From Glaucostegus cemiculus (lineage: Eukaryota): a stretch of 64,000 nucleotides of DNA. Below, one piece after another: positions 1,193 through 63,350 of this stretch (position 1 is its first letter; the number at the start of each line of letters is the position of its first letter). The stretch covers positions 21,948,001 through 22,012,000 of the forward strand of contig CDPCPM010000026.1 of the NCBI GenBank assembly GCA_976551045.1, read 5' to 3'. The notes beneath the pieces were generated by a model. The model was not told the origin of the DNA. It did no database searches and saw nothing but the letters and a program-made list of their open reading frames with translations. A program made the position numbers and the translations under genes.

Positions 1193-2024
1193 GCTTTAAG
1201 GCACAGCTATGGTTTGACAGCACATAGATGCAAATTGCTGTTGTAGTATAAATGCATATACCAAAGTAACATATCTGTACCTTTATGATAATAATCTGTG
1301 ATAGTGCAATCTTTTGACAGTTCAAATTAAAAATCTCAAGGTCCCTAGTCATCAATATCTGGGACCTCTTCTCAATCCTGCCAACCCTCACCTCTCCTAG
1401 TGTTTTACCAGTGCACCATGCAAATAGTGCCAGGCAACATATTTGTTTCAGGTCCCAGAACACTGGCCTTCTCTGTTAATCTACTTTCACCCCTTAGTGA
1501 GATTACTTAGTGCAATGACATTTTGCTTGAATGAAACAGCAATCCTCAACTGAAACAGAGTGAATATGCCTTTTATACTTCAGAGAGAGGCAGGCTTGCT
1601 ATATACTCTTTGAACAAACTGTCCCCTTCTGTGCTAATGTTATTGTTAGGAGACCAATGGGAGTTCTCTAGGTTCTATAAGCAATAGAGCTGAAAATAGA
1701 GCAAACCCCGAAAATGCTGCAAGGACTTGGCTCAAAGTTACAAAATTACAGAAGGCCACATTCATAATGACTTCCATAAGAGGCAGTGTCACAATTTGCT
1801 ATTTAAATCCACAGATACAGGGGTCAGGGACTTAGAGTCTGTGCAAGTGATGGAATGGTTGAATCGAAGAGGAATCTCAGCACGGTACATTTTCAAGTTT
1901 GAAGCAACTGAATAGAGACTCAGCAATTTCATGGATCTTTTTCAATGAGAAACCTGAATTTAAATTTAGTTTACACCATTTGTGTTTATGTAAGTTAGCA
2001 ATGCCGAGTGAAGAAAAAAATAAT

Positions 2025-2465
2025 GTGCATTCATATGGCATTTTTCACACCTCTTTCAGCATGTCTCAGAGCACTTTGTATGCATTAAGTACTTTTTAAA
2101 GTGAGGTCACTCTTGTAGTGTAGGAGTCGTAGCAATTTGCTCAGCAAAGTCCCACAAACAACAATGAAATAATGATTAGATAATCTGCTCCTGGAAATAT
2201 TAATTGAGGAATAAATAGCAGACACTGAGGAAAACTACCTGCTCTTCTTTGGAACAGAGTCATAGAGCAATACAGCATGCAAACAGGCCCCTCAGCTTCA
2301 CTAGACCATGTCAACCAAGATGCCTGTCTAAGCTAGTCCCATTTGCCAGCGTTTGGCCTGTGTCTCTCCAAACTTTTCCTATCCGTGAGTAGTTCCAAGG
2401 GATCTGTTAAGTCTACCTGAGAGATCAGACAGGGATTTGGTTTTATGTCTCATTTGAAAGGCTCC
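2025..2465 (-). mobile_element. SacSINE1/DeuSINE-like SINE, interrupted by a CR1 tail
   Basis: gtgcattcatatggcattttt...gcactttg...aagtactttttaaagtgaggtcactcttgtagtgtagg...cccacaaacaacaatg...cctgctcttcttt, resuming as gggatctgttaagtctacctgagagatcagacaggg...gtctcatttgaaag; same family at 11185, 22993 and 61190. Confidence 0.75.
2254..2390 (-). mobile_element. CR1 LINE 3' tail fragment inserted into the DeuSINE
   Basis: agagtcatagagcaatacagcatgcaaacaggcccctcagc...agtcccatttgccagcgtttggcc...aaacttttcctatcc is a reversed CR1 3' end; near-identical architecture at 16401. Confidence 0.8.
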
Positions 2466-4109
2466 TGGTGTAATAGTTCTGGGTAGTGGGAGTTGATTCT
2501 GTGTGATAGGTTTCCTTTTATGAATGTGTCTGAAGATCCTATAGTCAGGTCTAATTAGGACCGGCTGTTTCACCAGTCACACCCCTGGCCTTAAGTTCAA
2601 TAATTATGGAGAGTAGCTTCAGCCATTTTGGTGAGCTGTGCTGAATGATAGAACTAACAAACAGTTTTTTTTTGTTGGATGTGATCCTTATAATGTATGT
2701 GACTTCAACCGAAGAGGAAAATAAACCAAATATGCACAAGAATTTTTTTCCAACTATAAGTCCTATAATATTGTTCCTCAAGTTACAGAAATAACTTCAG
2801 GCTTGGAATAATGCCCACAGTTTCTGGGCTAAAGGTACAGCTACAGAGTTGCTCTCAGTTTCATAAATACTGGAACAATATTTTGATCACAAACTATTAA
2901 TGAGCTATAAATACTTAAGTGTTGAACATAGGTTTTGCCTGTATTAACATCTTATGAAAAGGCATCTATAAATAAAACAATTTCAGATAGTTCAGTGATT
3001 TCAGTATAGATTGCCAGGCTTTTAACTGAGAGGAGCAGATCTCAGATACCATGTTTGCAAATTTATCAGCTCTCAATGGGTAAATTTCACCAGTCCTGGA
3101 CGTATTTGCACAAACCCACCTTCTGCTGGTTTTGATTAGGGATGGCATTAGCAAATCAAATCATTAAATATCGTGGCAAATAGTAGCAGAAAAGGCTTGA
3201 ACACCAAAAGGGGACTTAGGTTAAAGAAAATATTTTCACAGTCGGTGGCTGTTAACGTGCATTCATTTTCCCCAGTGGAAATTTTAAGAAATCGCTTTAA
3301 AATTCACTGAAGTTTTAAAGAATTTCCATGCAGTAAACTTAAGTACACATTAAAAGTTATAACTGTTCTTCCTAAAATCTATTGTTAATGATCATAAAGT
3401 TTTCCAAACATGCTCCTATTTGTACTCAAGATAAATAATAAATGTATAGTGCATTTGATCATAGATTACATAAAACAAATATTGGCTGCATTTGAGGGCA
3501 ATAATTGTAATCTAATGAATAAGGATTACCAAAAAACACAAGGGCTTCAGTAGTTCAGATGTTATTATATGCTCAAGGAGTTGTGAACCTCAAGAGGCTA
3601 TAATTTACCTGATACCCTCAAAATATCAGTCAATATTTATTTTAGGAAGTTTTCTGAGCTGAAACTTTGGGAATTCATCTTGAGAATATATGGGATCCAT
3701 TGAATATGGTCCACAAGCCATCCTTCTCCATGGACTTCAGTCAAGCAAAGCTGTTCTCTGTTAACTAGTTTTCTCTCATTTCATGATCTTTCCTTGGTCG
3801 GCTCCTTCTACCATAAACACGCAGACCTTATTTTTGCCTATGTTTTGGCTAGACACATAAAGATGGAACGTCCTGTAGGATGGGATTGTTTTATTCCATT
3901 GACTTTGAAACCAACATTATTTAAATTGTTTATGGAAAGGTCTGTCCATGCTTTTGTATTTATGGGCCACATATATGTGCAACAAGCCACATGTAAAGAT
4001 TAAAACCACAGTCCCATTAATTGACATCTCTCTAGTTGCTAATACAAATAGATTTTGATGCCTTGTACACCACAAAATCTCATGGAAAGTGGGCACTTGA
4101 CCCAAAACC

Positions 4110-4360
4110 TCTTAATTGGTCTTCTGCGAAAAAACATCCAATACTGATCCTACTGCCCTGCCCATTCTTTATAGCCCTGTAACTTCCTCCCATTTAAAAC
4201 ATTTATCCAATTTTCCCTTAAAAGTTGCAATAATATCTGACTCAGTCACTCCCTTTGGCAGCACATTTCAGATTGCAACAACAATCTAGTTAAGAAGATT
4301 CCTCTGAACTTTTTGTTACGGGCCTCCAATGGAAGTAATATTCCTTCCCATTTACTCTAG
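4110..4360 (-). mobile_element. Degraded CR1 3' fragment
   Basis: catttatccaattttccctt...ccctttggcagcacatttcagattgcaacaac...gttaagaagattcctctg resembles reversed CR1 ORF2 end and 3' UTR. Confidence 0.55.
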
Positions 4361-7300
4361 GCACGGAAAGACTTTTTGATTTGAAATAATGCCTATTGCT
4401 TTTGGGTTACAATTATCAAAATGTTTCATAATTTTTGAAAACTCAGATTTCCTTTCAGATTTCTTTCAGAAAAATCAGATTTTCTTTCTGTCTTTTTATG
4501 ATGTAATGATCCATTATCTCAGGTCTTCTCTCCTAATTATAGTTAACTGTTTTGGACGTTGTCCTGCTGAATCAATGTTGAGTGAGCTTCATGGATTTAA
4601 TGCCCTATCTTTTATTGGGTGTCCAAATGTTGCAAATATTACCATAACCGTGGCATCATTAGTAACTTGTACAAACTTACCATGACCTGTTCATCTCTTG
4701 TACTCAATGCCCTGACTTATAAAACCCAATATGCTTATTGGTCATTTGTACTTAACATTATGAACATCACTGGCCACAGCACAAATGACTTTCAAAATTC
4801 CAATTGATCTGTAACATTCCCTCTGGCAATCCAATTCACTTCTTTGGAAGCTCAATTAGATGTGTAAAAGTAACTTTGCTTTCTGAAATCAACACTGCCT
4901 GCCCTTGATTAAACCTTACATTTCTATATCTTCATTAATTTTACAAGATCATGAACTTTAAGTGTTTGCTCATTGAATCCAAGTATTAGGCAACAAGTCG
5001 AAAGCAACCTTTGCTAAACCAATCTGATTCCACAGATGTCAAGCAGGCCAAGCCACACAGTGTCAAAAGTGTAAAAAAAATGACACTCCAAAGCTTGAAA
5101 GGCTCTATTATCAAAGCTCCAAAACTGCAGAGACCTCAAAGCTTGAAGATCAGACACAGTTGGTTTAGGAAGTCAATAGGACTGATCCTGATTCTAGTTT
5201 CCTTAATGTGAGATGTATCAAAACACATTGACCAAGGGAAGGAGTGGCTAAACCTCAGCTTCAAATTTCATTTCTGTTTTGGGAAATTTAATCGGAACAC
5301 TAATTGCAGTATTCTTCCAGCTGCCACTCTCCTTTTTCAAAAGTTGAAACACCTTTTAACTGTTCATTACAGGGAGAATTTTGACACCCAATGGTAGGCA
5401 GTGACTCTATGGGGGCACTTTAAAAGTCAATTACTTACAGAATTCCCACTCTGTAGAAAATTTAGGACCATTAATTTTGCTTGCAGGGGGTGAGGTGCCC
5501 ACCTAAATCAGGAGGGAGCCTCAGTTGTGCATGAAAATTATGATCCTAGTTCATTAAGAGCTCAATTGCCTCTTAACCATGTTCTGAATGGGGCATTTAC
5601 TTTTCTCAAATAACTTGAAGAGGCAAAAAAATCAAAAGGCAAGTTCATACCTAGGTTAGACATGGAAAATCTTGGCCCCAGTTCCTTTAGGCTGCCCCCA
5701 CCTCCCCACCAACTCCTGCCATTTTCCACCAGGTGTAAACGTTCTGCCTGTACCCTGTAGACTGCACACTGTGAACAAGGTCCATCAAGTAGCTGCCTCT
5801 TTTGCCCACGTTGGGTGAGGCAGCTTGCAGACAGGAGGTAGATAATGCCTAGGAATTAACAGAATGATATTGGGTGAGTTTGCTCAATCCACAGTAACAG
5901 CAACTCCAACCAGCTCCCACCACCACCGTTCCATCTGGTCTCCTAAGACTCATTCCCAGTTAAAATCCTTATAAAACAGCACACAACTCAATACAACTAG
6001 TAAAGAGTTAAAGGAGCAGTAAATTTATGTAATGCAGTTACATGGAAAATGGGAAACTGCATAAATATGGAAAATCTGTCAGACATAGGAATCAAATGCA
6101 ATTATCAAACTTTTTTTTGTATTTGGCAGTGACTGCATATGGAAATATTTAATCCTCGAATTTAAAAAGCTCTTCAGTATTCTCCCATATGTAAAAAATC
6201 TTTTCAATTAATGATAATTTTCTTCAGCCGAATGTCAACCCTGTTTTACTTATTAACAAAGTGGCTGGGGTTTTAGTGTCATTACTAAATGACAGAGCAA
6301 ATGTAACCAGGTGGGATAGTGGTAATGGGTTTCAAGATTTCGTGAGATTCTGAATCTGACTGGGCTCTGCTGAGCCCCTCATGATAATCAAGATTGTACC
6401 ATGTCCAACCACACTGCTTAAAACAACGGTTTGGTGAGAGTGTAGACATACCTTATTATAAATTAATGTATGTTTTCATAACCATTCTTCCATGTTTCAC
6501 TACTTTTTAAACTATCAGTTTTCCTTGTGGTAAAATACTTCAAGACAGTATAATGCACAATATTATTTTGTTTATTTGGTGCTATTTTTGCTTCTAGCAT
6601 TCAACAAGTGTGATTATTAATGGTGTATCTTTTTCAATTGATTAATTTTCATCTCATGGATATCTTTAGATTTCCTGGAGTTGCCTGTTACCTGTATAGC
6701 TTGTCTTATTGCACCCTTTTCTGTTTACGAAGAACAATGTGAGCTGGGTAGCAGGAGCAGGATTCAAGAACACATGGGAAATTTGTCCAGCAGTTCCTTT
6801 GGTGGGTTTTTAAATCAGCCAGTTTGTTAGTATTTTACCCCTGCATTTGCTGTCCGATGTGTGGCAGTGGTCCTGATGAGCACTCACGTGGTGCAATCCC
6901 AGCTGAACATTTACAAAGCCAAAGCAAATGTGGATTTTAGAGGATTTTGGATTTGGTACAATATATTGCAGATGATCAAAAACTGCACTGTGGCTCTATA
7001 ACTTGCTAAATGCAGCATCAGGCTCCCAGCAATAGGAGGAACAAATCTGCTAACACCAAGAATGCATGGAAGGAGATAGTCTAGAAGGTCAGCACTAGGA
7101 CTCTGGCCGAGATGCATTTTGAGAAAAATGATGATCTAAGTGGGTCAGAAAAGGTGAGTAAATTTGCACAGTAACATCTAGCTGTGCACTTCACCTCACT
7201 GCTCACATGGCCTTTAACAGCCTACTTCATCACAATATTCCATGCACTGAATTACCTTGCAAAAACACCCATTCTTCACTTTCTATGCATTTGCTCAAGC

Positions 7301-13039: not shown

Positions 13040-13590
13040 AAAAAAACTACTGATGATGGGAATCTAAAACAAAAAAACCCAGAAAATGCTGGTAATACTC
13101 AGTAGGTCAGATCACATTAATGGGAGGAGAAATAGAGTCTTTGGTATTGGTACTGGTTTATTATTGTCACTTGTACCGAGGTACTGTGAAAAACTGTCTT
13201 GCATACCGGTCGTACAGGCCAATTCATTGCACAGTGCAGTTGCATTGGGTTAGTACAGAGTGCATTGATTTAGTACAGGTAAAAATAATAACAGTACAGA
13301 GTAAAGTGTCACAGCTACAGAGAACGTGCAGTGCAATAAGGTGCAAGGTCACAACAAGGTAGATCATAAGGTCATAGCCCACCTCATTGTATAAGGGAAC
13401 TGTACAATAGTCTCATCACAGTGGGGTAGAAGCTGCCCTTAAGTCGTACCACCAGACTTAAGGATGTTTCAGGTCGGAGACCCTTCATCAAAGTGTCACC
13501 TCTGACCTCACATATTGACTCTGTATCTCTTCCCAGACATGTCCTCTGAGGCTGCTGAGTATTTCCAGCACTTTCTGTTTGTGTTGCCTG
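13040..13590. mobile_element. Fold-back Penelope-derived element with degenerate hammerhead motif, interrupted by a Rex1/Babar tail
   Basis: Left arm cagaaaatgctggtaatactcagtagg (13080) pairs with right arm ctgctgagtatttccagcactttctg (~13552); reversed core atgtttcaggtcggagacccttcatca at ~13464-13490. Confidence 0.7.
13141..13460 (-). mobile_element. Rex1/Babar-type LINE 3' end with (CCAATA)n tail
   Basis: ttggtattggtactggtttattattgtcacttgtaccgaggtactgtgaaaaact...gtggggtagaagctgcccttaagtc; same tail at 29470 (+) and 59221 (-). Confidence 0.75.
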
Positions 13591-25344: not shown

Positions 25345-25547
25345 TTTATTTACAGCGTGCTAACAGGCCCTTTCAGCCCAACGAGTCCGTGTCGCCCATT
25401 TTAAACACCCGATTTAACCTACCTGTACGTCTTTAGAATGTGGGAGGAAACCGGAGCACCCGGAGGAAACCCACGCAGACACGGGAGAACGTACAAACTC
25501 CTTACAGTCAGCGATGGGAATCAAACCCCGATCGCTGGTGCTGTAAC
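25345..25547 (-). mobile_element. Young short V-SINE (CpG-rich) with short CR1-type tail
   Basis: tgtacgtctttagaatgtgggaggaaaccggagcacccggaggaaacccacgcagacacgggagaacgtacaaactccttacag (core, CpGs intact); tail aacaggccctttcagcccaacgagtcc. Confidence 0.85.
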
Positions 25548-25679
25548 AAGAAACCCATGTCACAAAGATGTCCATTAAAAAAACACAAAAGATGCAAATG
25601 ATAGAAGTTTATAAAATTATGAGAGGTATAGATAGGGTAGGCAGTCAGAATCTTTTTTCCCAGGGTAGAAATGTCAAAT

Positions 25680-25812
25680 GGAGACGAGAGACTGCAGATG
25701 CTGGAATCTGGAACAACACACAAAAAACAGGAGGCACTCTGAGGGTCAGGCAGCATCTCCATGGAGGGAAATGGAGAGTCAACATTTCCGGTCGAGACCC
25801 CTCATCTGGATT
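25680..25812 (-). mobile_element. 133-bp Penelope-derived element starting with a hammerhead motif; 12-bp TSD
   Basis: Flanked by GAAATGTCAAAT at 25668-25679 and 25813-25824; minus strand begins aatccagatgaggggtctcgaccggaaatgttgactc. Confidence 0.8.
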
Positions 25813-25909
25813 GAAATGTCAAATACTAGTGGACTGTCAGGTACCAGAGAGTATTTAAGGTGAGAGTGGGAAAGTTTAAAAGAGGTATGCAGGGCAAATT
25901 TTTTTTACA

Positions 25910-26150
25910 CAGATAAGATATCTTTGTTAGTCACATGTACATCGAAACACACAGTGAAATATGTCTTTTGCATAGAGTGTTCTGGGGGCAGCCTGCAAGT
26001 GTCGCCATGCTTCCAGTGCCCACATAACATGCCCACAACTTCCTAACCCATACGTCTTTGGAATGTGGGACGAAATTGGACCATCCGGAGGAAGCCCACG
26101 CAACCACGGGGAGAACATACAAATTCCTTACAGACAGTGGCCAGAATTGT
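25910..26150 (-). mobile_element. V-SINE with Rex1/Babar-like tail, 5'-truncated, inserted in CR1
   Basis: agataagatatctttgttagtcacatgtacatcgaaacacacagtgaaat...gtctttggaatgtggg...ggggagaacatacaaattccttacagacagtgg; highly similar to 29120-29410. Confidence 0.85.
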
Positions 26151-27414
26151 GCCTGCCCTGAGTGGTAGGTGCCCAGAATGAGCTGCCAGGGGTAGTGGTG
26201 GAAGCAGATATGATAGAGATAGTTAAGAGGCTGTTGGATAGACACATGAATGAATACACAGGGAATGGAGAGTTAAGGATAATGTACAGGCAGAAGTGAT
26301 CTAATTTAATTAGGCATCGGGTTAGGCACAGACATTGTGGGCCAAAGGGCTTGTCCTTGTGTTGTACTGTGCTATGTTCTAATTAATTTCTTTCAGAAAG
26401 CTTCACTGCTGGCCCCCTGGAACAGGAATGGGAATGTGGATGATGGATCAAATTCTCTCAGCAGTGAATAGGAGTTGTTCTTAAACAACGTTCAATGGAC
26501 CTTTGGGTGTAGTTGAAAGAGATAAGGATCAAAGGTAATTAATGAGAGCAAATGCAGTGTAATTAGAGTAACATATACTGGTCAGATTTATGATGGATAG
26601 TCCATGTGCCTATTTCCACAGGCAACATCCTCCCCCACCCATCCCACTACCATAACATCTGACTAGTATATGCTCCATGTTGAGGCGCTTGTGAGAATCT
26701 GAATTAAAGAATCACTTTTTCAGCAAGTATTCTCATCTCTGAGGAGCTAATCACCCAAATGTGGCTTCACCCTGCAAAAGGTGGGGAATCCACAAATACT
26801 GCAGGGAATATGAAGTTCATTGTAACAATGTGTTCTGTTGTGATCTGAACTTTCCTTCAGTTCCAATGGAGCCATGAATGATCCTGAATATCGGTGTTGT
26901 CAACACTACTGCACCTATGTACTTAACTGTTGCCTTTAAAATGGCTTTGTCTATTGTGTTGCGACATATTTAGTACACGTGTCATGGCATAAATTTAGCT
27001 GGGTGAAACTATTCATTTTTTAAATTATCCTTAATTAAATGAATTGAAAAGTGAACATTTGGTATGTCCTGAGCCAAAAATCTGCAAGTTGTCCAACAGG
27101 GTGCCAGTCTGTCTGGTCCACTGATAATACTCTTTGTTTGGCATTTCAGATTGGCTCGATGTGCTAATTGAGGCAGTGAGACCACATATCCAAAGCATAA
27201 TTAACACCTAGTTAGTGAAAATTATGTTCAGTTCACTTTAGAACAAGCACATCAAATAACCACATTAGATAAAACACAGATCCAAATTTCTTTGTCCATA
27301 ATAAATTCAGTATATTCTCTGGACAAGCTACAAAGAAGCAGAATGGGGACCAGCAGGAGAGAGCACAAGAAACCAGAAAGAGGGATGCAGCAATAGCACA
27401 GAAATAAAAGCAAA

Positions 27415-28807: not shown

Positions 28808-29462
28808 AACACAGTGGCACCACTGGTAGAGCCGATGCCTCACAGCTTCAGTGACACAGGTTAAATCCTGACCTCAGGTGCTGTCTGTGTGGAGTTTGTG
28901 CATTCTCCCTGTGACCATATGCATTTCACCCAGGTGCTCTTCTGGTTTCTTCCCACATTCCAAACCCGTGTGAGTTAGTGGGTTAATTGGCCACTATAAA
29001 TATCCCCCCATATGTAGGTGATTGGTAGATTCTGGACGAGAATTGATAGAAATGTGGGAAGAATAAAAAAGGGACTAGCATAGGATTACTGTAACTGGAT
29101 GCTTGATTTTTCTATGGTTGATAGGATATCTTTATTAGTCACATGTACATCGAAACACACAGTGAAATGCATCCTTTGTGTAGAGTGTTCTGGGGGCAGC
29201 CCACACATGTTGCCATACTTCCGGCGCCAACATAGCATGCCCATAACTTCTTAACCTGTACGTCTTTGGAATGTGGGAGGAAACTGGAGTACCCGGAGGA
29301 AACCCATGCAGACACAGGGAGAATGTACAGACTCCTTACAGACAGTGGCTGGATTTGAACCTGGGTCACTGGCACTGTAATAGCATTACACTAATCGCTA
29401 CACTACGTGATGTGGCCCTGGTGGGCAGAAAGGCATTTATCCATGCTATTTACCTCTATGAT
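28808..29462 (+). mobile_element. HE1/V-SINE-like SINE whose tail is split by an antisense SINE
   Basis: Head acagtggcaccactggtagagccgatgcctcacagc, core gctgtctgtgtggagtttg...ttctccctgtgacc; tail resumes after 29410 as ggtgggcagaaaggcatttatccatgct...ctctatgatt. Confidence 0.8.
29120..29410 (-). mobile_element. V-SINE with tRNA head and Rex1/Babar-like tail, near full length
   Basis: Reversed head ggatttgaacctgggtcactggcactgtaatagcattacactaatcgctacactac; V core; tail tatctttattagtcacatgtacatcgaaacacac. Confidence 0.85.
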
Positions 29463-29469
29463 TTACATG

Positions 29470-29615
29470 CTGGTGCTTAACGTAAGTACTTAATGCACTC
29501 TGTACTAACTCAGTGTAACTGCACTGTGTAATAAATTGATTTGTCCGAACCATATGCAAGACAAGTTTTTCACCGTACCTTGGTACAAGTGACAATAATA
29601 AACCAATACCAATAC
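29470..29615 (+). mobile_element. Rex1/Babar-type LINE 3' tail
   Basis: aatgcactctgtactaactc...gtaccttggtacaagtgacaataataaaccaataccaatac, reverse complement of 13141-13270. Confidence 0.8.
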
Positions 29616-29705
29616 TTCAAATTTGTTTATTCTGATTTTCACTAATCATATGTGATCCCATTCAAGTGAAAAGATTTGTCTATCTTCATTGAAAAGGCCG
29701 GTTTA

Positions 29706-29860
29706 ACCATAGAACAATACAGCACAAAACAGGCCCTTCGGCCCACCAAGTTGTGCCATCCTTCAAACGTCTCACAATCTAACTCTTTCCTCCCACATAT
29801 CCTACTATTCCACATTCTTCCATGTGCCTATCTAACAATCTCTTGAACCTGTCCATCGTA
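29706..29860 (-). mobile_element. CR1 3' tail
   Basis: accatagaacaatacagcacaaaacaggcccttcggcccacc...ccatgtgcctatctaacaatctcttgaa. Confidence 0.8.
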
Positions 29861-30127
29861 TTTATCTTTGATTCAATTTGCATTTCTTTACTCCATTCTG
29901 AATTTATGTCTTGAATTAATTAACAGTGGATTAACGAATGCTGGTGGCCAGGTCTCAGGATGTAATGTCTTGAAGTCAGTGGAGGGCTTGCAGTCTGCAG
30001 CCCCAAAACAGCAAGATTGTAGGGACCTGTGCAGCCAGTGAAGGTTAATGCAGGCACATAGGGATGTGCAAGGCTGGTGGGCCATATCAATCTTTTGCAA
30101 TATCTCAAACCATTAGGATCGTTACAT

Positions 30128-30450
30128 GACACAGTGGTGCAGCAGTTAGTGCTGCTGCCTCACAGCTCCAGGGACCCAGGTTTGACCCTGAACTTGGGTG
30201 CAGACTGTTTGCAGTTTGTGTGCTCCTCCCTTCACTGTGTTGGTTTCCCCCTACATACCAATGACATACCGATCGGTTAATTGCTACTTAAGCTACCCTT
30301 TAGCATTGAAACAAATGGGTATTGATGGGCACGTGAGGGAGAAGAAGTTGCAGGGCCACAGAAGGAAGCTGAGTGGGATTGCTGAGATTGTTATGATGGA
30401 AGCTGGCATGGACCCACTGGGCTGAATAGCCTTTTTCTGTGCTATAATAA
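30128..30450 (+). mobile_element. HE1/V-SINE-like SINE, diverged
   Basis: acagtggtgcagcagttagtgctgctgcctcacagctccagggacccaggtttgaccctg...ggcatggacccactgggctgaatagcctttttctgtgct. Confidence 0.8.
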
Positions 30451-36729: not shown

Positions 36730-37760
36730 GCTTCCGTAGAGTCAAATGTTGTAGAGGCACACTAGTTTTCCAGAACGAATGGACTAGACGGACCAATGAG
36801 CTTTCCCCTTTGAGTTCCCGCGAGTATCCGTGCTTTTCTTTTCTTCCTTCAGGAATTTACAAACATTCACAACAAATCAATAAGGCTATTGATTATTCAT
36901 TGTACAGTGCGTTGTTGGTGCGAAGCTGGCACAGAAAGCAAATGCAGCTTCTGCAAGCCAGCCGCATCCCATCTGGTGGCTGGTGGCACAGAGAAAGGAG
37001 AAAAAAGGCAGGGAGAAAGAACGTGAGAGAAAGCCAGATGAGTGAGAGAGGTGGCAGGGCATCTCCGCAGGCATGGGAAGTACGCATTTATGCTACGTAA
37101 GGGTATGGCAACGTGTAAAAAGAACTGACTCACAGGGAACAGGAGATAGCTACTACGTAACAGAGGTTTCCTTGGCTCTGTGACAAGAAGAGCGGTAAGG
37201 TAATACATGATTGCTGCTCTAATGCTGTGACTATGCAAACGTCTGTGATGCATCCACTTATTTTGCAGTCGTGTAGCGACTGGAACGTGAAGGAGGGGGG
37301 AAAACATTGTGTCGCCTTCTTGTAAGTAAATGTAACTGCATGCAGAAAGGATCGTGAGCTTGAAACCTGCTAAGAGAATTTTTGAAAAGGAAGGGGAGCA
37401 GGAAGCGTTATGCATTAAGGAGCTGTGGCATGCCAAATGTTTTATGAAAATAAAATCGGAAGAGGGAGCGAGAAAAGAGAAGAGAAAGCACAGCTTGGCC
37501 CAGTGCCAACACCAGTGAAATGAATTATAGTGTAGAATAATGGTACACCATTGATCCAGCCACTTGTTTGAGAGCGGTGATTGTCCCCGAGCCCTGACAG
37601 GAATTTCTGTGCGTGCGTACTCTGGGGCTGCATGAGAAAACCAATAAGTCACAACTGCTGACGACACTGTGAGGGAGGAGTGGGTTGCCAAGTGAGCATG
37701 CCCATGTTCAAGTGGTATTCTACTGTATAAATACAAGCGTTCAGTCTTCTCAATGGGAAC
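36730..37760. promoter_or_regulatory. Repeat-free, CpG-retaining candidate conserved element (alternative-exon cluster and/or promoter)
   Basis: Many intact CpGs versus depleted flanks; several minus-strand polypyrimidine-YAG sites; TGCATG motifs; X-box-like ggtatggcaac at 37102; CCAAT at 37641; TATAAATA at 37726. Confidence 0.45.
37134..37177 (-). other. Candidate 44-nt exon
   Basis: Minus strand ccttaccgctcttcttgtcacag|AGCCAAGGAAACCTCTGTTACGTAGTAGCTATCTCCTGTTCCCT|gtgagt, with consensus acceptor and donor; host gene not recognised. Confidence 0.35.
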
Positions 37761-38072
37761 TTCTCATGCACCATTTCCTATTTTATTAACAAAAGGTTTA
37801 CATTCTCCCTAGTCTATCAAAGTTTGCATGAAAGAGGGGCCAGAATGTTCATGCTTTATTCTTAGCAAAATAATTACCAGCTGAAGCAATCTGTTGCAAA
37901 GATCAAAGTACAAAAATCAGCATTTTGCTTACAGGAAATTACTTAATAAAGGCTGGCACCGTGGAAAGACATCCACCAATCACTGTAATAGCAGAACTAC
38001 TCACCTTTACAAATTCTGGGTTAAGCATGGAGCACTGTCCTATCTTGTCGAGGGATGGTAAAGACTGTGTGG

Positions 38073-40864: not shown

Positions 40865-41795
40865 ATCAGAATCAGAATCAGGTTTATTATTACTGACTTG
40901 TATGATGTGAAATTTGTTGTTTTGTGGCAGCAGTACAGTGGAGGCATAAAACTGTTCAGAAATCTGACAGTGGAGTGGAAAAAGCTGTTCCTGAAATGTT
41001 AAGTGTGGGTCTTCAGGCTCCTGTACCTCCTTCCAGATGGTAGTAATGTGAAGAGGGCAGTCCCAGATGGTGAGGGTCCTCAATGATGGATGCTGCCTTC
41101 TTGAGGCACTGCCTCTTGAAGATGTCCTCGATGAAACAGAGGGTTGTGCCTGTGATGGAGCTGGCTGACTCTATAATCCCCTGCAGCCTCTTGCAATCCT
41201 GTGCATTGGAGTCTCCATACCAGGCTGTAATGCAACCAGTCAGAATGCTCTCCACCATACATCTATAGAAATTTGCAAGAGTCTTAGGTGATATACCAAA
41301 TTTCCTCAAACTCCTAATGAAGTAGAGCCACTAGCATGCCTTCTTCGTGGTTGCATCAATGTGTTGAGCACAGGATAGATACTCAGAGAAATTGACACCC
41401 AGGAACTTGAAGCTGCTCACCCTTTCCACTGCTGACCCCTCAATGAGGACTGGTGTGTGCTCTCCCGACTTCCCATTCCTGAAGTCCACAGGAAAGGTCT
41501 TGCTGATGTTGAGTGTGAGGTTGTTGTTGTGATACCTCTCAAACAGCAGATCTATCTCATGTCTGTACGCCTCCTCATCACCATCTCAGATTCTGCCAAC
41601 AATAGTGGTGTCATTAGCAAATTTATAGATGGCATTTGAGCTGTGCCTAGCCACACAGTCATGAGTGTAGAGAGAGTAGAGCAGTGGGCTTAGCATGCAT
41701 CCTTGAGGTGCACTTGTGTTGATTGTCAGTGAGGGGGAGATGTTATTACCAATCTACGCTGACTGTGGCCTCCTGAAAAGGAAGTTGAGGATCCT
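40865..41795 (-). mobile_element. Rex1/Babar LINE, 5'-truncated (RT C-terminus, DUF1891-like region, (GATTCT)n tail)
   Basis: ORF 41013-41309 RKFGISPKTLANFYRCMVESILTGCITAWYG...CLKKAASIIEDPHH; RT catalytic motif decayed to IYKFANDTTIVGRI at ~41590-41632; tail atcagaatcagaatcaggtttatt. Confidence 0.9.
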
Positions 41796-42111
41796 ATATT
41801 AGATCTTTAGAACTTCTGTTTTCAGCACTTCCTCTCATTGAACCCACTTTCCACATGAGAGACAATCTCCGATCTGTTAGACAAAGGATTGTATCTTAGC
41901 TGATTATTGTTGAACTTTGTTAGTGTTAAGGATCATCGTATGGAGGGAGTCTCTTTGTCTGGATTGATGACTATGATTTAACAGGGTCCTTGTGAAAGAT
42001 GTCCCTCTGTCAAGGATTTACTTATTACCCTTGCAGTCGATTCCTCCCTCCTTCATCTGCTGGGAGATGAGGCTGGTGGTTTTCTGCTGGGACTTCCCCC
42101 GGTTACCTTCC

Positions 42112-42170
42112 TCGTCCACAGATGCTGCTTGACTGGTTGAGTTCTTCCAGTGCTTCTGTTTTTGTTTCAG
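42112..42170 (+). mobile_element. Penelope-derived element 3' fragment
   Basis: tccacagatgctgcttgactggttgagttcttccagtgcttctgtttttg. Confidence 0.6.
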
Positions 42171-42400: not shown

Positions 42401-42532
42401 AAACAAAGGACTGTGGATGCTGGGATCTAGGGGAAAAACACTATGATGCTGGAGGAGCTCAGCAGACCAGGCAGCGTCTGTGGAGAAAAGCAGGCAATCA
42501 ACATTTCGGGTCAGGACCCTTCTTTAGGACTG
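42401..42532 (-). mobile_element. Penelope-derived short element starting with a hammerhead motif
   Basis: Minus strand cagtcctaaagaagggtcctgacccgaaatgttgattgcctgcttttctccacagacgctgcctggtctgctgagctcctccagcatc...; same subfamily as 51502-51572. Confidence 0.8.
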
Positions 42533-43311
42533 ACAATAGTGTTTTTTATCTCAGTTTTCCACAGTGATGCTGTTACTAGTGTGACTCTCATTGTAGCAAT
42601 GCTTACGGCTATGGTAGGATTGCATGTTGGTATGAGGAGCCAGCGAAGCTGATGTTAGCCCCTGCCTCCAGGATCCATTCTTCTGTACAGTGTTGGCTGT
42701 GGAAGATGTCCATAGTGCCATCTCACTGAAGGCAAAATGTCAAGTGTCCTTGCGGGACACATCACATTCATCTTCAAGAAATTCTAACGTTACGCTGTAA
42801 CTTCATTGCATCTGGCATTGATCAGGAACTGAGGTTATGTGCAACTACCCAAAGATGAAAAGAATGGAAACTTTTCCACCAGGAAAATGTCTTGGCGATT
42901 CCAGGGAGTTCAGTCAATAGATGCCTTCACTCATGTTAAGACAGCAATGCTGGCCAGTCTCAAACAGGTTTCCCAATGAATGCAGAATGTCCCTTAATTA
43001 GACATAAGTACAACAAAGTTAACATGAAAAGCTTCTGGTTGTAACTGTGAGTGTTCAACAAAGGTTGTATGTTCAGTCTAAATGCTCCAATCTATGCCAT
43101 TATGGGAAGAATCTCTGATGCCTTTAGATGTCACAAAAACATGACATGCTAATGTGAATTGTACACAGAAATGCTCAGAGCATTTGCCTAATGGTTGCAA
43201 CTTTTCCTGGAAATGATCACTAGCCTGGTCTAACTTAGGTTAAGTTACTTTTATGTGCGATTTTTCCCTAGAAACAAGGGAATCCAATTTTCAGGCTGAA
43301 GTATTGTAATC

Positions 43312-49130: not shown

Positions 49131-51224
49131 GATAGGTTAAATTGTAGTTCTCAACCTTCCATTTTATATTTTTTATTCAGAACAATAATCCATTTTTCCC
49201 AATATTGTGCTTGATAACATTGTCAACTTTTTGTTACCCCTCTTGTTTTATTTTCAATTTAATAGGAATGCTGTTCACCATAAAATCATTTTTAATTAAT
49301 TCATTAAAAAGAGAGCTGGAAATAATATTAATAATGATGAATGAGGCAATTTAGCTACCTATAATTCTTGCAAGTAAAGCTATATCTTTACCAAATTAAA
49401 ATGAAAAAAAAAGTCTAAACTGAACTGGGAGTAGAGGAAACCTGATAGTTGATTTCCTCTATTTCCAGTGAAATGTGATTTTAGAATTCTGTCTGCATTT
49501 GGTATTTTAAAATGCTCAGGTTTGCTTTTCAAACTTGACTGCATTTCAAATTAGATCAGGAAGTGGGATAGAGCTTAAATGGCAGAATCATTTTACAGTT
49601 TCTATGGGGATAATGGCAATGTGTGAAAAGAAAAGCAGAAAGGTCTTTGTCCAAACTAATTCTTTATGTAACTGCTAAAGCTTTTCAGATTTAATTTGAC
49701 TATTAATACCCTTGCTACTTCCTCCATCATTAATAATGCTCTACAAAAGCTATTTTGTTGATCAGTATTTTTTTCTATGATATTCTCTGCGGTTAAAGTC
49801 TGCTGATGTTGTCTCCCATTGTTTGGTGATTTTTTAATATTTGCAGGCAGTTATTAATGTGATACCTTTCAGTTGTATGGCTTGTTTATCAGTATAGCTA
49901 ATTAATTTTGGTACCTTAATGCAGCATTTCGATGGCTATTTATTTCAGTGCATTAGAAGTAAAGAGGGAATCCAATTTACACCTACAAAGAAGTGGCAGC
50001 CTGAAATTACACAGAGCTGAAGCACTAAATTGACACAAAAGCCCCATTCATGTGAAGCAAAATGGAGTCACTCCACATGACTTCAGTTTGCTTCACTTAA
50101 CATAAGGTCTGCATTTTTCCACATTCGCAGAGCAATAGAAAAGGATTGGCCCACACAGGTACTTTGGACAGATGCCAGTGGGGTGACCACATCACCACAC
50201 CAGCATTCCTCTTTTGCTTGGAACTGCTTAACGTGCAAGGAGGGACTTTAGAGAGAATCAGGGCCAATTTTAAGTATCCTTCACAGTGAATTCATCTCAG
50301 TAATTTCATTCTGGTGTAAAGCTAGGTTGATTGTTTTTTCTTATACTAGAGCTGAAATCACTCCAGATTAACTTTTTGAAAGTTTCAAAAACTGGAATGC
50401 AAAAGATAAATGATTTGGAAGGAAGAAAGACATGCAGATTTGGATTCCTGAAACCAAACCCCTCTCAAAATAAATTCAAATTCAACATTGGTACTACAGT
50501 AAAATATTAAGCTGCAATTTGTAATCAGACAACTGCAGTTAACTATATTTTTATCTTAAACAGCTGCCCAAATGCATGTTTTGATTGATGTTCGATTGAC
50601 AATCATCACTGCCAACTCTTTTATGGAAGCATAGGAGAGGATAAGCCTTATGTTCAACATCCATAAGACAGAAGCCCCCTATCAATTTGCCCTGCACTGA
50701 TTAACTCTGCCCTCTGACAATCAAGGTTCATGGGAGACCTGAGAAAACATGGCTCAATTCTCTTATCTCTGGACTACATCTCAAAACAGACATCAACGAT
50801 AAAGTTCACTGCTTCCTGCACAAAGATGATTTTGACAAACCTGGCACAAAATTCATAGTCTATTTGGAAGCAGGGATCCTTGCCCTCCTGTGTACTTCTG
50901 GTTTATCTCCAGTTTTTGCCTCAGAGCACGGGAGAGAAACCACCAACAACTCCAGAGCCACTGGAAGGATGTGAATTAATGTCTACATCCTCTTTAAGAC
51001 CAACACCTCCAGCACTGAGACCCAAATTGCACCTGTTGTTTCCAATGGGGAGGTAGGTCATTAGTATGCTTGACTCCAGAGTCCCAAAACAGTCACTCAG
51101 AATAGAACCGATTGCTAGGTGGGCAGAGCAAAATATCCATAGGTGCTCTCAAAGCCTCTTTAAGATAATGTAACATCTGTACTGACTTTGTGAATTGCTG
51201 GCCCATGAAGACTCAAAATGAATG

Positions 51225-51572
51225 AATCCCCCCCTTCCCCACAACTCCCCCCCCACCATGCTTCTTCTCTTCTTCCCTTTCCTAGCCTCCTTTTTTCTAC
51301 CCTTTATTTCCTTTCTCTTCTTACCTTTGACCTATCCCCCAGTGGATCTGCTCTCCCTTCCTCCCCTGCACCTGCCTATCACTATCTCTTATCCGCATCT
51401 TCCTAACACTACCCAGTGCCCACCCCACCTCCCCTCTTTTGTCCACCTATCACTGCTCTGCTTTTCCCTCCTATATATTGGGCTTCCCCTTTTCCTATCT
51501 TCGGTCCTGAAGAAGGGTCCTGACCTGAAACATTGAACGCCTACTTTTCTCCAGCATCATTGTGTTTTTCAT
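51225..51572 (+). mobile_element. Penelope-like element 3' UTR/pLTR fragment (pyrimidine-rich) with hammerhead motif
   Basis: C/T-rich run ending ctatcttcggtcctgaagaagggtcctgacctgaaacattgaacgcctacttttctccagcatc; lacks an internal segment present in the 42401-42532 copy, between two CTCCA microhomologies. Confidence 0.75.
51502..51539 (+). ncRNA. Minimal type I hammerhead ribozyme motif (Penelope-associated)
   Basis: CGGUC-CUGAAGA-AGGGUC CU GACCU-GAAA-CA-UU-GAACG: intact CUGANGA and GAAA core, stem II, stem I CGGUC/GAACG with one mismatch; the loop-3 CG is CA here. Confidence 0.55.
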
Positions 51573-52709
51573 GAAGAAGGAGTGTTTGGGATAAACAGAA
51601 TCCCAGTGTAAATGACAGAAGGACCATTCCACTACCCATTTCTTGTCCCCTGGCCCATCTATAAAAGAGTCTGCTGTTCCCTCATCAGTTTTACCGGTCA
51701 CCTCAGAACACACAGAACTGGCTGAAAGCAATTCATTCTTGATCCTGAGAGACTGCCTAAAAATAAGCAAAGCAAGGTCCAACAATAACCAATGTCTCAC
51801 CACTGGACCTCCTTCATCTGCATCGAGCTGCCCAATGTTCTAGTGGTCTGGAGTAAGTGAGTGAACCCAGGGCATTAGTTTACTTCCTGGGAGTCAAGAC
51901 AACAAAGTTTATGTTTTGTAAGCATGAATCTGCAGACAGCTAGAACAAGCCAGAGATAACAGTCAGAGGATTAAAATTTAGCTCACATCACTTTCTAAAT
52001 GGTTAAGATAAATTATTTAAGACAGAAATTGAAAGCATTTACAAACAGATAGTTTAATCAAGGGCAGTCTGTATGGATTTGCTAAGAATCAAGTCATCTT
52101 TGACAAATTTAATGGAGTTTTTTTTGAAGAAATGACTGATTGAAATAATTAAGCGAATGTGGTAGATGTAGTTTACATTTTCAGAAGGCAATCAAAAGGC
52201 TCGGTGGAAGAATTCATCTGGTTGGAATTAAAGGAAAGTTGCATTTGCAGAGACAAATATTAGACTGACAAATGAGAAACTAAATAATTGCTGCATGAAA
52301 CTTTGTACCTTTTCTTTTCAGTATAAGGGCTTGATTGAGAGATCTCAATTTCAGTATATACTGGCAACAAATGCAACAATTTTGGTAGGAAGGAAGGGAG
52401 ATATAAAACCTTCAATAAGACACAGGTTAAAAGGCACACAGGGTAAAAGTTAATGTGGATGAGTGTGAGTTTCTTGAACAGAAACAAGGAAAGTTTTTTT
52501 CCCAAATTTGCTGACAATACAAAGACAAGGGGGAAATTAAGTTGTGTAGAGGACATAAAATGTAAGGGAAGCGATATCCTTAGGTGAAGCGAGAGGGGAG
52601 AAAAGATGGCCAGATGGAACGTAGTGAGGGGAAATGTGAGGTTATTGACTTTGATAGGAATAGAAAAGCAGAGCTTTATTTCATTGACAAAAAACTATTA
52701 AAATGTGGT

Positions 52710-53057
52710 GAAAAAGCTGTGAATGCTGGAAATCTGAAATTAAAAAAAAAATCAGATGCTGGATAGATTCAGCAGGTGAAACAACATTTGTGGAAAGAGA
52801 AATAGAGTTAATGTTTCTGGAGACACAGGAGACAGTAGATGTTGGAACCTGGAAAAATAAACAAACTGCTGGAGGAACTCAACAGGTTGAGCAGCATCTT
52901 TGGAGGGGAAGGGAATTGTTGATGTTTTGGGTCGAGACCCTGTACCAGCCCTGGAGCAGAGTTTTGACCCGAAACTTCAACAACTCCTTTCCCCCCGCAG
53001 GTACTGATTGACCCACTGAGTTCCTGCAGTAGTTTGTTGTTTAATGTTTCAGGTCTC
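52710..53057 (-). mobile_element. Penelope-derived element, interrupted inside its hammerhead by a second copy
   Basis: aatgctggaaatctgaaat...cagatgctggatagattcagcagg...gagaaatagagttaatgtttc, then insert, then ttaatgtttcaggtc. Confidence 0.7.
52818..53040. mobile_element. Fold-back (palindromic) Penelope-derived insert with 10-bp TSD
   Basis: TTAATGTTTC at 52808-52817 and 53041-53050; arms aaacaaactgctggaggaactca...gggtcgagaccctgtaccag and ctggagcagagttttgacccgaaac...tgagttcctgcagtagtttgtt. Confidence 0.8.
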
Positions 53058-57854: not shown

Positions 57855-58210
57855 CAGTACAGTGGAGCAGCTAGAAGAGCCGCTGCCTCACACAGTGCCA
57901 GGGACCTGGATTTATCCTGATTTCAGTTGCTGTCTGTGTGGAGTTTGCTGGATTCCCAGCTGTGACTGCATGCGTTTGCTCCAGCTACTACAGTTTCCTC
58001 CCACATCCTAAAGACATATGGGATGGTAGAATAATTGGCCATTGTAAATTGTCTCTGGTATGTAGATGAATGGTAGAATCTGGGAAGGAGATGGTAAGAA
58101 GGTAGGAAGAATAAACAATGGGATTTACATCATGTGAATGATTGGTTGAGGGTGGATGCGGATTCAATGGGCTAAAGGACCTTTTTCCATGCTGTTTCTC
58201 TATATGACCC
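57855..58210 (+). mobile_element. HE1/V-SINE-like SINE, full length
   Basis: acagtggagcagctagaagagccgctgcctcacac...gctgtctgtgtggagtttgc...cagtttcctcccacatcc...ttggccattgtaaattg...aatgggctaaaggacctttttccatgctgtttctctatatgac. Confidence 0.85.
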
Positions 58211-62701: not shown

Positions 62702-63350
62702 CTATTCCCAGGCACTGGGTCTATGCACACACCCGAACGAATTGGCGAATCCCGGTTCCGGTCACACGTAACAACATTCCCAGTCCAAGGGTCCAGCTAC
62801 ACACCGAACGGCATTCACAGTCCATGTGTCCAGCCACACACCAAACAGCATTCCCAGTCCACGAGTCCAACCATACACCAAACAGCATTCCCAGTCCATG
62901 GGTCCAGCCACACGCCAAACAGCATTCCCAGTCCATGGGTCCAGCCACACACCAAACAGCATTCCCAGTCCACGAGTCCAACCATACACCAAACAGCATT
63001 CCCAGTCCATGGGTCCAGCCACACACCAAACAGCATTCCCAGTCCATGGGTCCAGCCACACACCAAACAGCATTCCCAGTCCATGGGTCCAGCCACACAC
63101 CAAACAGCATTCCCAGTCCATGGGTCCAGCCACACACCAAACAGCATTCCCAGTCCATGGGTTGAGTCACACACTTAATGGCACTCCCAGTCCACAGGTC
63201 CAGCCAACACACCAAACAGCACTCCCATTCTACGGGTCCAGCCACACACCTAACGTCATTCCCAATCCCTGGGCTCCATTTACAAACCCAAACGCATACC
63301 CACGAATGGCTCCAGCTATACACCTGATCACACTCCCAGTCCCAGGCCAT
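62702..63350. repeat. 37-bp minisatellite (cattcccagtccatgggtccagccacacaccaaacag), roughly 17 units including degenerate edges
   Basis: Unit starts e.g. 63071 and 63108; near-identical core ~62850-63160; the overlapping ORFs on both strands are artefacts of it. Confidence 0.95.

Follow-up and report, generated by a model that had tools for sequence, protein, structure and literature searches.

Introduction

The closest described relatives of the motif studied here are the minimal hammerhead ribozymes of metazoan Penelope-like elements (PLEs), as described by Cervera and de la Pena (2014, PMC4209133). These are of type I with no helix III, and combine the core strings CUGANGA and GAAA with a short helix I and an extra base before helix II. 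Fish, coelacanth and Xenopus carry them in the thousands. A genome can hold thousands of the minimal motifs, mostly as solo copies derived from truncated elements, and pairs on opposite strands are also found. Cleavage was undetectable for a single motif and low for dimers (PMC4209133).

PLE insertions leave a number of marks. They are 5′-truncated, may lie adjacent to an inverted copy and have an optional tail of 30–40 bp (PMC8557442), and they can enter earlier copies (PMC6765202). The Penelope pseudo-LTRs of Adineta vaga (Arkhipova et al. 2013, PMC3846280) have a TATA box with an initiator-like sequence, target-site duplications of 8–10 bp and an optional 31-bp tail, and occur both as solo pseudo-LTRs and as inverted copies joined head-to-head at a palindrome. 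In Poseidon of Anolis carolinensis (PAc; Frangieh et al. 2024, PMC11167929) the pseudo-LTR hammerhead lies about 100–130 nt before the 3′ ends, two of which are set apart by the tail; the targets are AT-rich, and uncut RNA is the main substrate for insertion. Animal non-LTR retrozymes (PMC7229834; bioRxiv 10.64898/2026.07.22.740005) are non-coding, contain a type I hammerhead and are likely PLE-derived. The role of PLE hammerheads is still open according to PMC8557442 and PMC11167929.

We have analyzed a repeat family in a window of Glaucostegus cemiculus DNA, by which we mean the whole stretch of 64,000 nt. The family has the type I architecture, core strings, extra base and short helix I of the metazoan motifs, and the same solo copies and opposite-strand pairs. 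Its helix II is only 4 bp long, in contrast to the 7–8 bp of the Schistosoma motifs, and the copy that retains both core strings has lost the 10.1–11.1 G–C pair and the palindrome of PMC4209133. It shares with PAc the position of the hammerhead, the two 3′ ends, insertions made from uncleaved RNA and AT-rich targets, whereas the PAc ORF starts at helix II and its pseudo-LTR reaches well upstream, while most window copies start at helix I. The pseudo-LTR features of A. vaga recur here too, although in the parts of that account drawn on here the initiator is not assigned to the hammerhead; its head-to-head forms are ascribed to self-priming on an antisense template, where in the present family a fold-back of first-strand cDNA would suffice. 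Lastly, the retrozymes form tandem arrays with mostly canonical hammerheads, while the window family has no such array. Taken together, the locus is very probably a 358-nt insertion of an abundant repeat, itself likely to be the pseudo-LTR end of a PLE, and the minimal type I hammerhead within it has decayed and likely can no longer cleave.

Results

The motif and its defects

The hammerhead-like motif at 51502–51539 (forward strand) is not a chance occurrence. Its letters were verified, and it is the single match on either strand of the window to the strict core descriptor CUGANGA..GAAA-NN-UH. Shuffling of mononucleotides, done 200 times, gives 0.77 occurrences per window of the core by itself and 0.005 of the core together with at least three pairs in helix II and at least two in helix I. 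The 5′ strand of helix I is formed by 51502–51506, followed by the intact core C3–A9, CUGAAGA, at 51507–51513. An extra A at 51514 precedes helix II (51515–51526; four base pairs and a 4-nt loop, the segment as a whole being 51514–51526). GAAA follows at 51527–51530, then C15.2, A16.2, U16.1 and U17 at 51531–51534, and the predicted scissile bond is 3′ of 51534. The 3′ strand of helix I is 51535–51539. All 11 positions of the core (CUGANGA, GAAA, U16.1 and H17) are as required in this copy, compared with 57 of 66 across the six motifs of the window.

The helices have fared less well. Helix I has four of its five pairs; A51537, which is C in the family by contig comparison, is mispaired with G51504 just beyond the two closing pairs. 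Helix II is closed by a G10.1•U11.1 pair in place of the G–C pair conserved in the class, while copies D, E1 and E2 have C11.1. The 15.1–16.1 sequence is ACAU, which is not palindromic, so that the four-pair helix III needed by a dimer would contain two mismatches and is in effect lost. The first-pass annotation had described an intact core flanked by intact stems I and II; the core stands as described, but the stems are those of a damaged copy.

Folding calculations point the same way. The hammerhead-shaped fold has a probability of 0.0025 for the isolated 38-mer, and the pairing probability of its helices is at most 0.03, either alone or with 121 nt of context. Copy D, which carries G5>A, forms helices I and II at 0.65 alone, with helix I at 0.001 in context. 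The programs leave the catalytic core unmodelled, and these figures are therefore supporting and not decisive. An Rfam scan of the window, a covariance-model search of the kind the annotation had proposed, yields 10 matches at E ≤ 10, and none of them is a hammerhead; motifs of the minimal kind are without helix III. Matches to MIR904 at 52897–53001 (34 bits; gathering score 80) reflect a hairpin formed by copies E1 and E2, and were rejected. This copy is a mutated and probably inactive hammerhead, a real though decayed member of the published motif class within an abundant, probably PLE-derived repeat.

Seven insertions of one family

Self-comparison and a profile built from six copies resolve seven insertions in the 64 kb, denoted A, B/H, C, D, E, F and G. 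The density of about one per 10 kb given by the first-pass annotation is thus borne out. Its homologous motifs are also present, at 13464–13492 (reverse strand, UUGAUGA), 25776–25813 (reverse, CAGAUGA) and 42495–42532 (reverse, CUAAAGA), with two within 52818–53040, and it was right that only the motif at 51502–51539, one of six, keeps both core strings. The two inside 52818–53040 are on opposite strands, arranged head-to-head and not in tandem.

Insertion A comprises 358 nt (51212–51569, forward strand). It is bounded by an exact 8-bp target-site duplication at 51204–51211 and 51570–51577, for which the null rate is 2.75% of 400 random zone pairs. The tract 51227–51501 is the pyrimidine-rich upstream part, 5′-truncated and likely to be 3′ UTR or upstream pseudo-LTR; it is present once in the window and matches thousands of repeat contigs in all four sequencing runs described below. 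Beyond the hammerhead the 3′ remainder (51540–51569) has no tail, and comparison with copy D reveals a deletion of 31 nt between CTCCA repeats after 51553. The deletion is corroborated by loose contig ends behind 51553 in all four runs (agreement 0.77–0.86). At the 5′ junction, between the duplication and the family-aligned tract, there are 15 nt of filler (51212–51226, forward).

Two further copies are simple. Copy C (25680–25812, reverse) is 133 nt long with a tail, has the core change U4>A, and its first base is the second base of helix I; it lies between 12-bp duplications (25668/25813). Copy D (42402–42556, reverse) has a 131-nt body with a tail, the core change G5>A giving CUAAAGA, and 21 nt of inverted filler at its 5′ end, with an 11-bp duplication (42391/42557). 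The third, E, is a head-to-head pair, E1 (reverse) and E2 (forward), at 52818–53040, centred on CAG-CC-CTG at 52946–52953, and its arms form a hairpin of −63.7 kcal/mol (z = −10.8). It has a 10-bp duplication (52808/53041) and is nested within an older copy G, whose 3′ part is 52712–52817 (reverse) and whose 5′ remnant lies beyond 53041. Unit B (13040–13586) is also head-to-head. Its forward arm is 13502–13586, its reverse arm consists of a hammerhead part (13463–13496) and the 3′ part H (13040–13139) split by 323 nt of a LINE 3′ end (13140–13462), and the duplication is 11 bp (13029/13587). Copy F is decayed and retains the 3′ part only (approximately 42105–42170, forward).

Exact duplications thus flank five of the seven insertions (A 8 bp, B/H 11, C 12, D 11 and E 10), with null rates of 2.75% for A, 0 of 400 for C and for E, and 0.5% for D taken as 13 bp with one mismatch; no duplication is convincing for F or G. 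Two of the seven (E and B) are head-to-head pairs, and D has a short filler in inverted orientation. The 3′ ends of A, C, D and E fall into two classes about 35 nt apart: they lie 131–136 nt from the first base of helix I in C, D and E1, and 95–99 nt in E2 and in A when its 31-nt deletion is counted. The optional tail is 32–41 nt. The E duplication (52808–52817 and 53041–53050) covers the GAAA-to-N17 stretch of G itself. The LINE in unit B has the end of an ORF, a TACCAA-type tail and a short 5′ inversion, without a duplication, and it splits the reverse-strand copy between N17 and the next base, the predicted scissile bond (with an ambiguity of 2 nt). Both nested insertions in the window have struck the same part of the hammerhead motif. 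The 5′ inversion of this LINE, with microhomology, fits twin-priming, a route of insertion at the DNA level. We considered whether locus B could be a fossil of RNA cleavage and judged a DNA-level LINE insertion, placed at the scissile bond by chance, the likelier.

No tandem array of the family is found: none of the 14 tandem-repeat entries for the window overlaps it, and same-strand motifs are spaced by 1,444, 10,421, 12,317 and 16,719 nt. The window also contains a minisatellite at 62763–63278 (period 37 nt, 13.9 copies, 87% matches), and further dispersed repeats at 872–1118, 25421–26376, 28809–30252 and 57859–58121.

Is the family of Penelope origin? The PLE assignment is drawn from anatomy, because neither a reverse transcriptase nor a GIY-YIG sequence turned up beside any copy. 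Pfam was run on 296 of 577 stop-to-stop frames of at least 45 aa (128 of 131 of 75 aa or more, 168 of 175 of 58–74 aa and none of the 271 shorter, so that short exons would escape), and found no reverse transcriptase, GIY-YIG endonuclease or host exon; five sub-threshold matches were neither exon nor reverse transcriptase. The ORF encoding these activities is expected to be missing from 5′-truncated copies. A protein search in which the copy D frame was compared with longer proteins gave one candidate and nothing significant. At the level of the family the motif has three of the four unbiased features of PMC4209133, i.e. the extra base after A9, G10.1–C11.1 (three of six copies) and a probable ancestral CG at 15.2–16.2. 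Thus for the proposal of a Penelope-derived minimal hammerhead family, the motif is of PLE type and the family very abundant, while the link to a Penelope ORF was not found. The longest stop-free frame (36900–37763, reverse, 288 codons) has no Pfam match and is unlike known proteins, and a weak match to PF09004 at 41016–41330 (reverse; 20.2 bits against a cut-off of 21) is likely the end of a LINE ORF.

Decay of the core

The core is no better preserved than the remainder of the element. The six motifs, a small sample that mixes at least two subfamilies, carry nine changes among their 66 core positions. For the four long copies the counts are 8 changes in 44 core positions and 68 in 336 downstream (Fisher p = 0.84), the downstream count being somewhat inflated by subfamily differences. 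Copy A retains both core strings probably because it is young, 4–6% diverged; at that divergence an 11-site core would be intact with an expected probability of 0.51–0.64 in the absence of selection. Selection on its core was thus considered and rejected.

No motif in the window is intact in all features together. An unpaired base between A9 and 10.1 is present in all six, but the 10.1–11.1 pair is G–C in three (and G•U in A), and helix I has four of five pairs in A (with the inner mismatch), five in D, three in C and one in each of the others. Covariation of stems I and II across copies, by which the first-pass annotation would have judged its self-cleaving motif, is not found in the five gap-free window copies, a small sample (B was left out for a one-base insertion): one of nine pairs has a two-sided change, a value reached in 189 of 500 shuffles.

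Two CpG sites appear to be weak points. That at 11.1–12 is intact in two of six motifs, being otherwise TG twice, CA once and GG once. The palindromic CG at 15.2–16.2 is present in none, where there are three CA, two TG and one CT; the CA/TG mixture nevertheless suggests an ancestral CG, and hence an ACGU palindrome. The observed/expected ratio of CpG in the window is 0.19. G12 is the general base of the hammerhead (PMC6155905). Since both CpGs, the second by inference, lie on needed positions, decay of methylated CpG would strike C11.1, G12 and the palindrome first, disabling new copies early.

The family outside the window

Contigs from four of the 15 DNA runs listed, of four organisms, were aligned to 51200–51700 at 80% likeness. 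The numbers of matching contigs are 10,714, 22,577, 46,734 and 11,145, almost all on 51230–51556, and the repeat family is very abundant. Summed depth is not copy number; division by single-copy depth and by 31 gives a rough floor of 1,900–6,100. Loose contig ends before 51247–51249 show that the family continues upstream of the start of copy A.

Among the 40 of 45 variant entries listed, 12 positions in about 304 nt have a different letter that reaches at least 85% in each of the four runs. These private changes, with six intermediate sites, place copy A 4–6% from its subfamily. They include 51503, where the family has A in 98–99% of contig depth in all four runs, and 51537, where it has C. 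Among the same 40 there is no variant in the core strings or in 51472–51478, and neither 51526 nor 51532 appears; an A>G change at 51532 with a share of 8% or above is incompatible with the tallies of the runs. Contig depth drops to 0.40–0.45 of the previous bin over 51523–51539 in all four runs, and two long contig pieces end at 51525, one letter short of their own end. The missing variants may reflect clipping bias against contigs that differ at 51526 and 51532, or the nearest subfamily of A may already have spread with U11.1 and A16.2. On either account nothing in the aligned contigs points to a dimer palindrome that is still intact.

A single-copy contig from organism B enters the 3′ end of A (window 51549–51700) with its first three letters unaligned, which suggests that this organism shares insertion A and lacks the 31-nt deletion.

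A putative start site on helix I

In four of the five hammerhead-bearing insertions (B, C, D and E) the 5′ end lies no more than about 6 nt from where helix I starts. An RNA that begins at helix I is the simplest reading of this shared 5′ boundary. Initiators follow the pattern YYANWYY, with a TATA box at a set distance before the start. The family A at 51503 makes 51501–51507 (forward) fit this pattern, overlapping helix I, although G51503 breaks it in copy A; according to the contigs the family sequence here can also be read as a polypyrimidine tract and CAG, a possible 3′ splice site. Upstream there is a TATA-like box, TATATATT, at 51472–51479 (forward), a putative promoter element whose first T is 31 nt before 51503. 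The window has 63 TATAWAW sites over both strands and 1,499 initiator-like words, and in no case does such a word have a TATAWAW at −30/−31, so that the spacing is rare by chance; it was noticed post hoc, in one window copy and the contigs. The predicted +1 is also the first base of copy C, whose duplication is clean, with a junction ambiguity of up to 3 nt. Among the 24 of 1,511 rows listed, loose contig ends before 51504 with long unrelated flanks are seen in three of four runs (19, 47 and 37 contigs; agreement 0.36–0.38).

Discussion

How might such copies arise? In the source element, two motif copies on one tandem transcript would pair their ACGU palindromes (as drawn from PMC4209133 and PMC11167929), or alternatively the element's protein would chaperone the hammerhead fold, and the RNA would be cut after N17. 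The hammerhead-bearing copies span the cut site and therefore derive from uncut RNA. They would be made by endonuclease-primed reverse transcription starting at either of two 3′ sites about 35 nt apart, most stopping at the 5′ strand of helix I, likely the beginning of the RNA. Some cDNAs would fold back at CAG-NN-CTG, generating head-to-head pairs. After insertion the solo copies would decay like the remainder of the element.

A more specific scheme is possible, though less likely than not, and we advance it tentatively. The TATA box and initiator would start the RNA at the second base of helix I, the ribozyme would be its first 37 nt, and the cut would remove a capped piece of 32 nt. The thousands of solo copies of 95–135 nt would then be complete cDNAs of uncut RNA running from priming site to cap, the head-to-head units fold-backs at that end, and the two CpGs would switch off new copies. 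If this is true the hammerhead is a cap-removing switch and not a tool for processing multimers, and the usual model, in which monomers are released from tandem RNA, needs a second reading as control of a capped 5′ end. A pseudo-LTR with TATA and initiator is already known in the rotifer PLE (PMC3846280), whereas Drosophila Penelope has a TATA-less internal promoter (PMC2377424). Neither a start site on the hammerhead nor this repeat family was found in the literature searched, which excludes subscription papers, Repbase and Dfam; the supplements of bioRxiv 10.64898/2026.07.22.740005 may list the family for the one chondrichthyan genome treated there.

The same boundary could instead be a 3′ splice site, as in Drosophila virilis Penelope, where the 5′ end of helix I marks the end of the intron (PMC4209133). 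The composition suits this, pyrimidines occupying 18 of the 20 bases before 51502, with the family CAG next. Yet D, E1 and E2 retain that CAG and C starts at its A, which are the very bases that splicing would remove, and the flanks joined before 51504 have no common exon, with the agreement of 0.36–0.38 given above. We therefore consider a splice site in place of a transcription start unlikely, though acceptor and start could coexist. A different challenge is that the youngest subfamily multiplied with a broken hammerhead, the motif being kept as a promoter or protein-binding sequence and cleavage being irrelevant to its spread. In all four runs 51526 and 51532 are without other letters among the variants listed, while the upstream CpGs at 51340/41, 51367/68 and 51426/27 show both alleles; hammerhead mutants left insertion in vitro unchanged (PMC11167929), and PLEs without hammerheads thrive (PMC8557442). 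But copy D, which has the loop and 3′ sequence of A, has C11.1 and TG at 15.2–16.2, and the collapse of depth over 51523–51539 is what hidden mismatches would give, so this too we regard as improbable. It is rather more doubtful still that the repeat stands by itself as a non-autonomous element, resembling a SINE, MITE or retrozyme, and is not the end of a PLE. Most copies are indeed 95–136 nt long with defined ends and duplications, the palindromic form resembles a MITE, and no link to an ORF was found. Against this, copy A has a further 290 nt on its upstream side, past which the family still continues, there is no tRNA gene in the window, no A-tail and no tandem array, and the inverted arms are head-to-head and unequal in length.

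The first-pass annotation went further, proposing that, with about one copy of the self-cleaving motif every 10 kb here, such sites may be abundant in chondrichthyan pre-mRNAs. The density is right and the family very large, the core strings of copy A agree with the majority of aligned contigs, and other parts of the genome may contain young copies that are intact. Nonetheless we think it highly improbable that the dispersed copies are working sites, and that part of the annotation is not supported. The window motifs are all defective, their cores are no better preserved than their surroundings and the helices of the five gap-free copies show no covariation. The nearest same-strand motif to copy A, 1.4 kb away, is itself decayed and held within the −63.7 kcal/mol hairpin, there is no tandem partner, and no exon was found in the 296 of 577 open frames scanned. 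The published activities agree: single minimal motifs are inactive and dimers poor (PMC4209133), the lizard PLE hammerhead is described as cutting only with the element's protein, with no RNA-seq ends at the site in that study (PMC11167929), and one of nine natural Xenopus dimers was cleaved (bioRxiv 10.64898/2026.07.22.740005). As a site of host-RNA cleavage copy A is thus most likely unimportant: its motif class is published, and it is a decayed copy among many. The interest of the family lies elsewhere, in that thousands of sharp-ended copies make the RNA start, the priming sites and the share of cut and uncut templates mappable from genome sequence alone.

Related motifs were sought more widely. 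The downstream-motif pattern has no match in viral and metagenome contigs. The hammerhead pattern has none in viral and prokaryote genomes and four in metagenome contigs, at L001 339–363, L002 667–691, L003 14–38 and L004 1276–1300. These have the same helix II string, but another helix I and a 4-nt loop III, and apart from one weak match around the motif they do not resemble the window; we rejected them as members of the family. They appear as a separate animal-like repeat family with a G–C-rich helix I and a helix III of one pair, the 4-nt loop being palindromic in three of the four; L003 contains two inverted copies about 1 kb apart.
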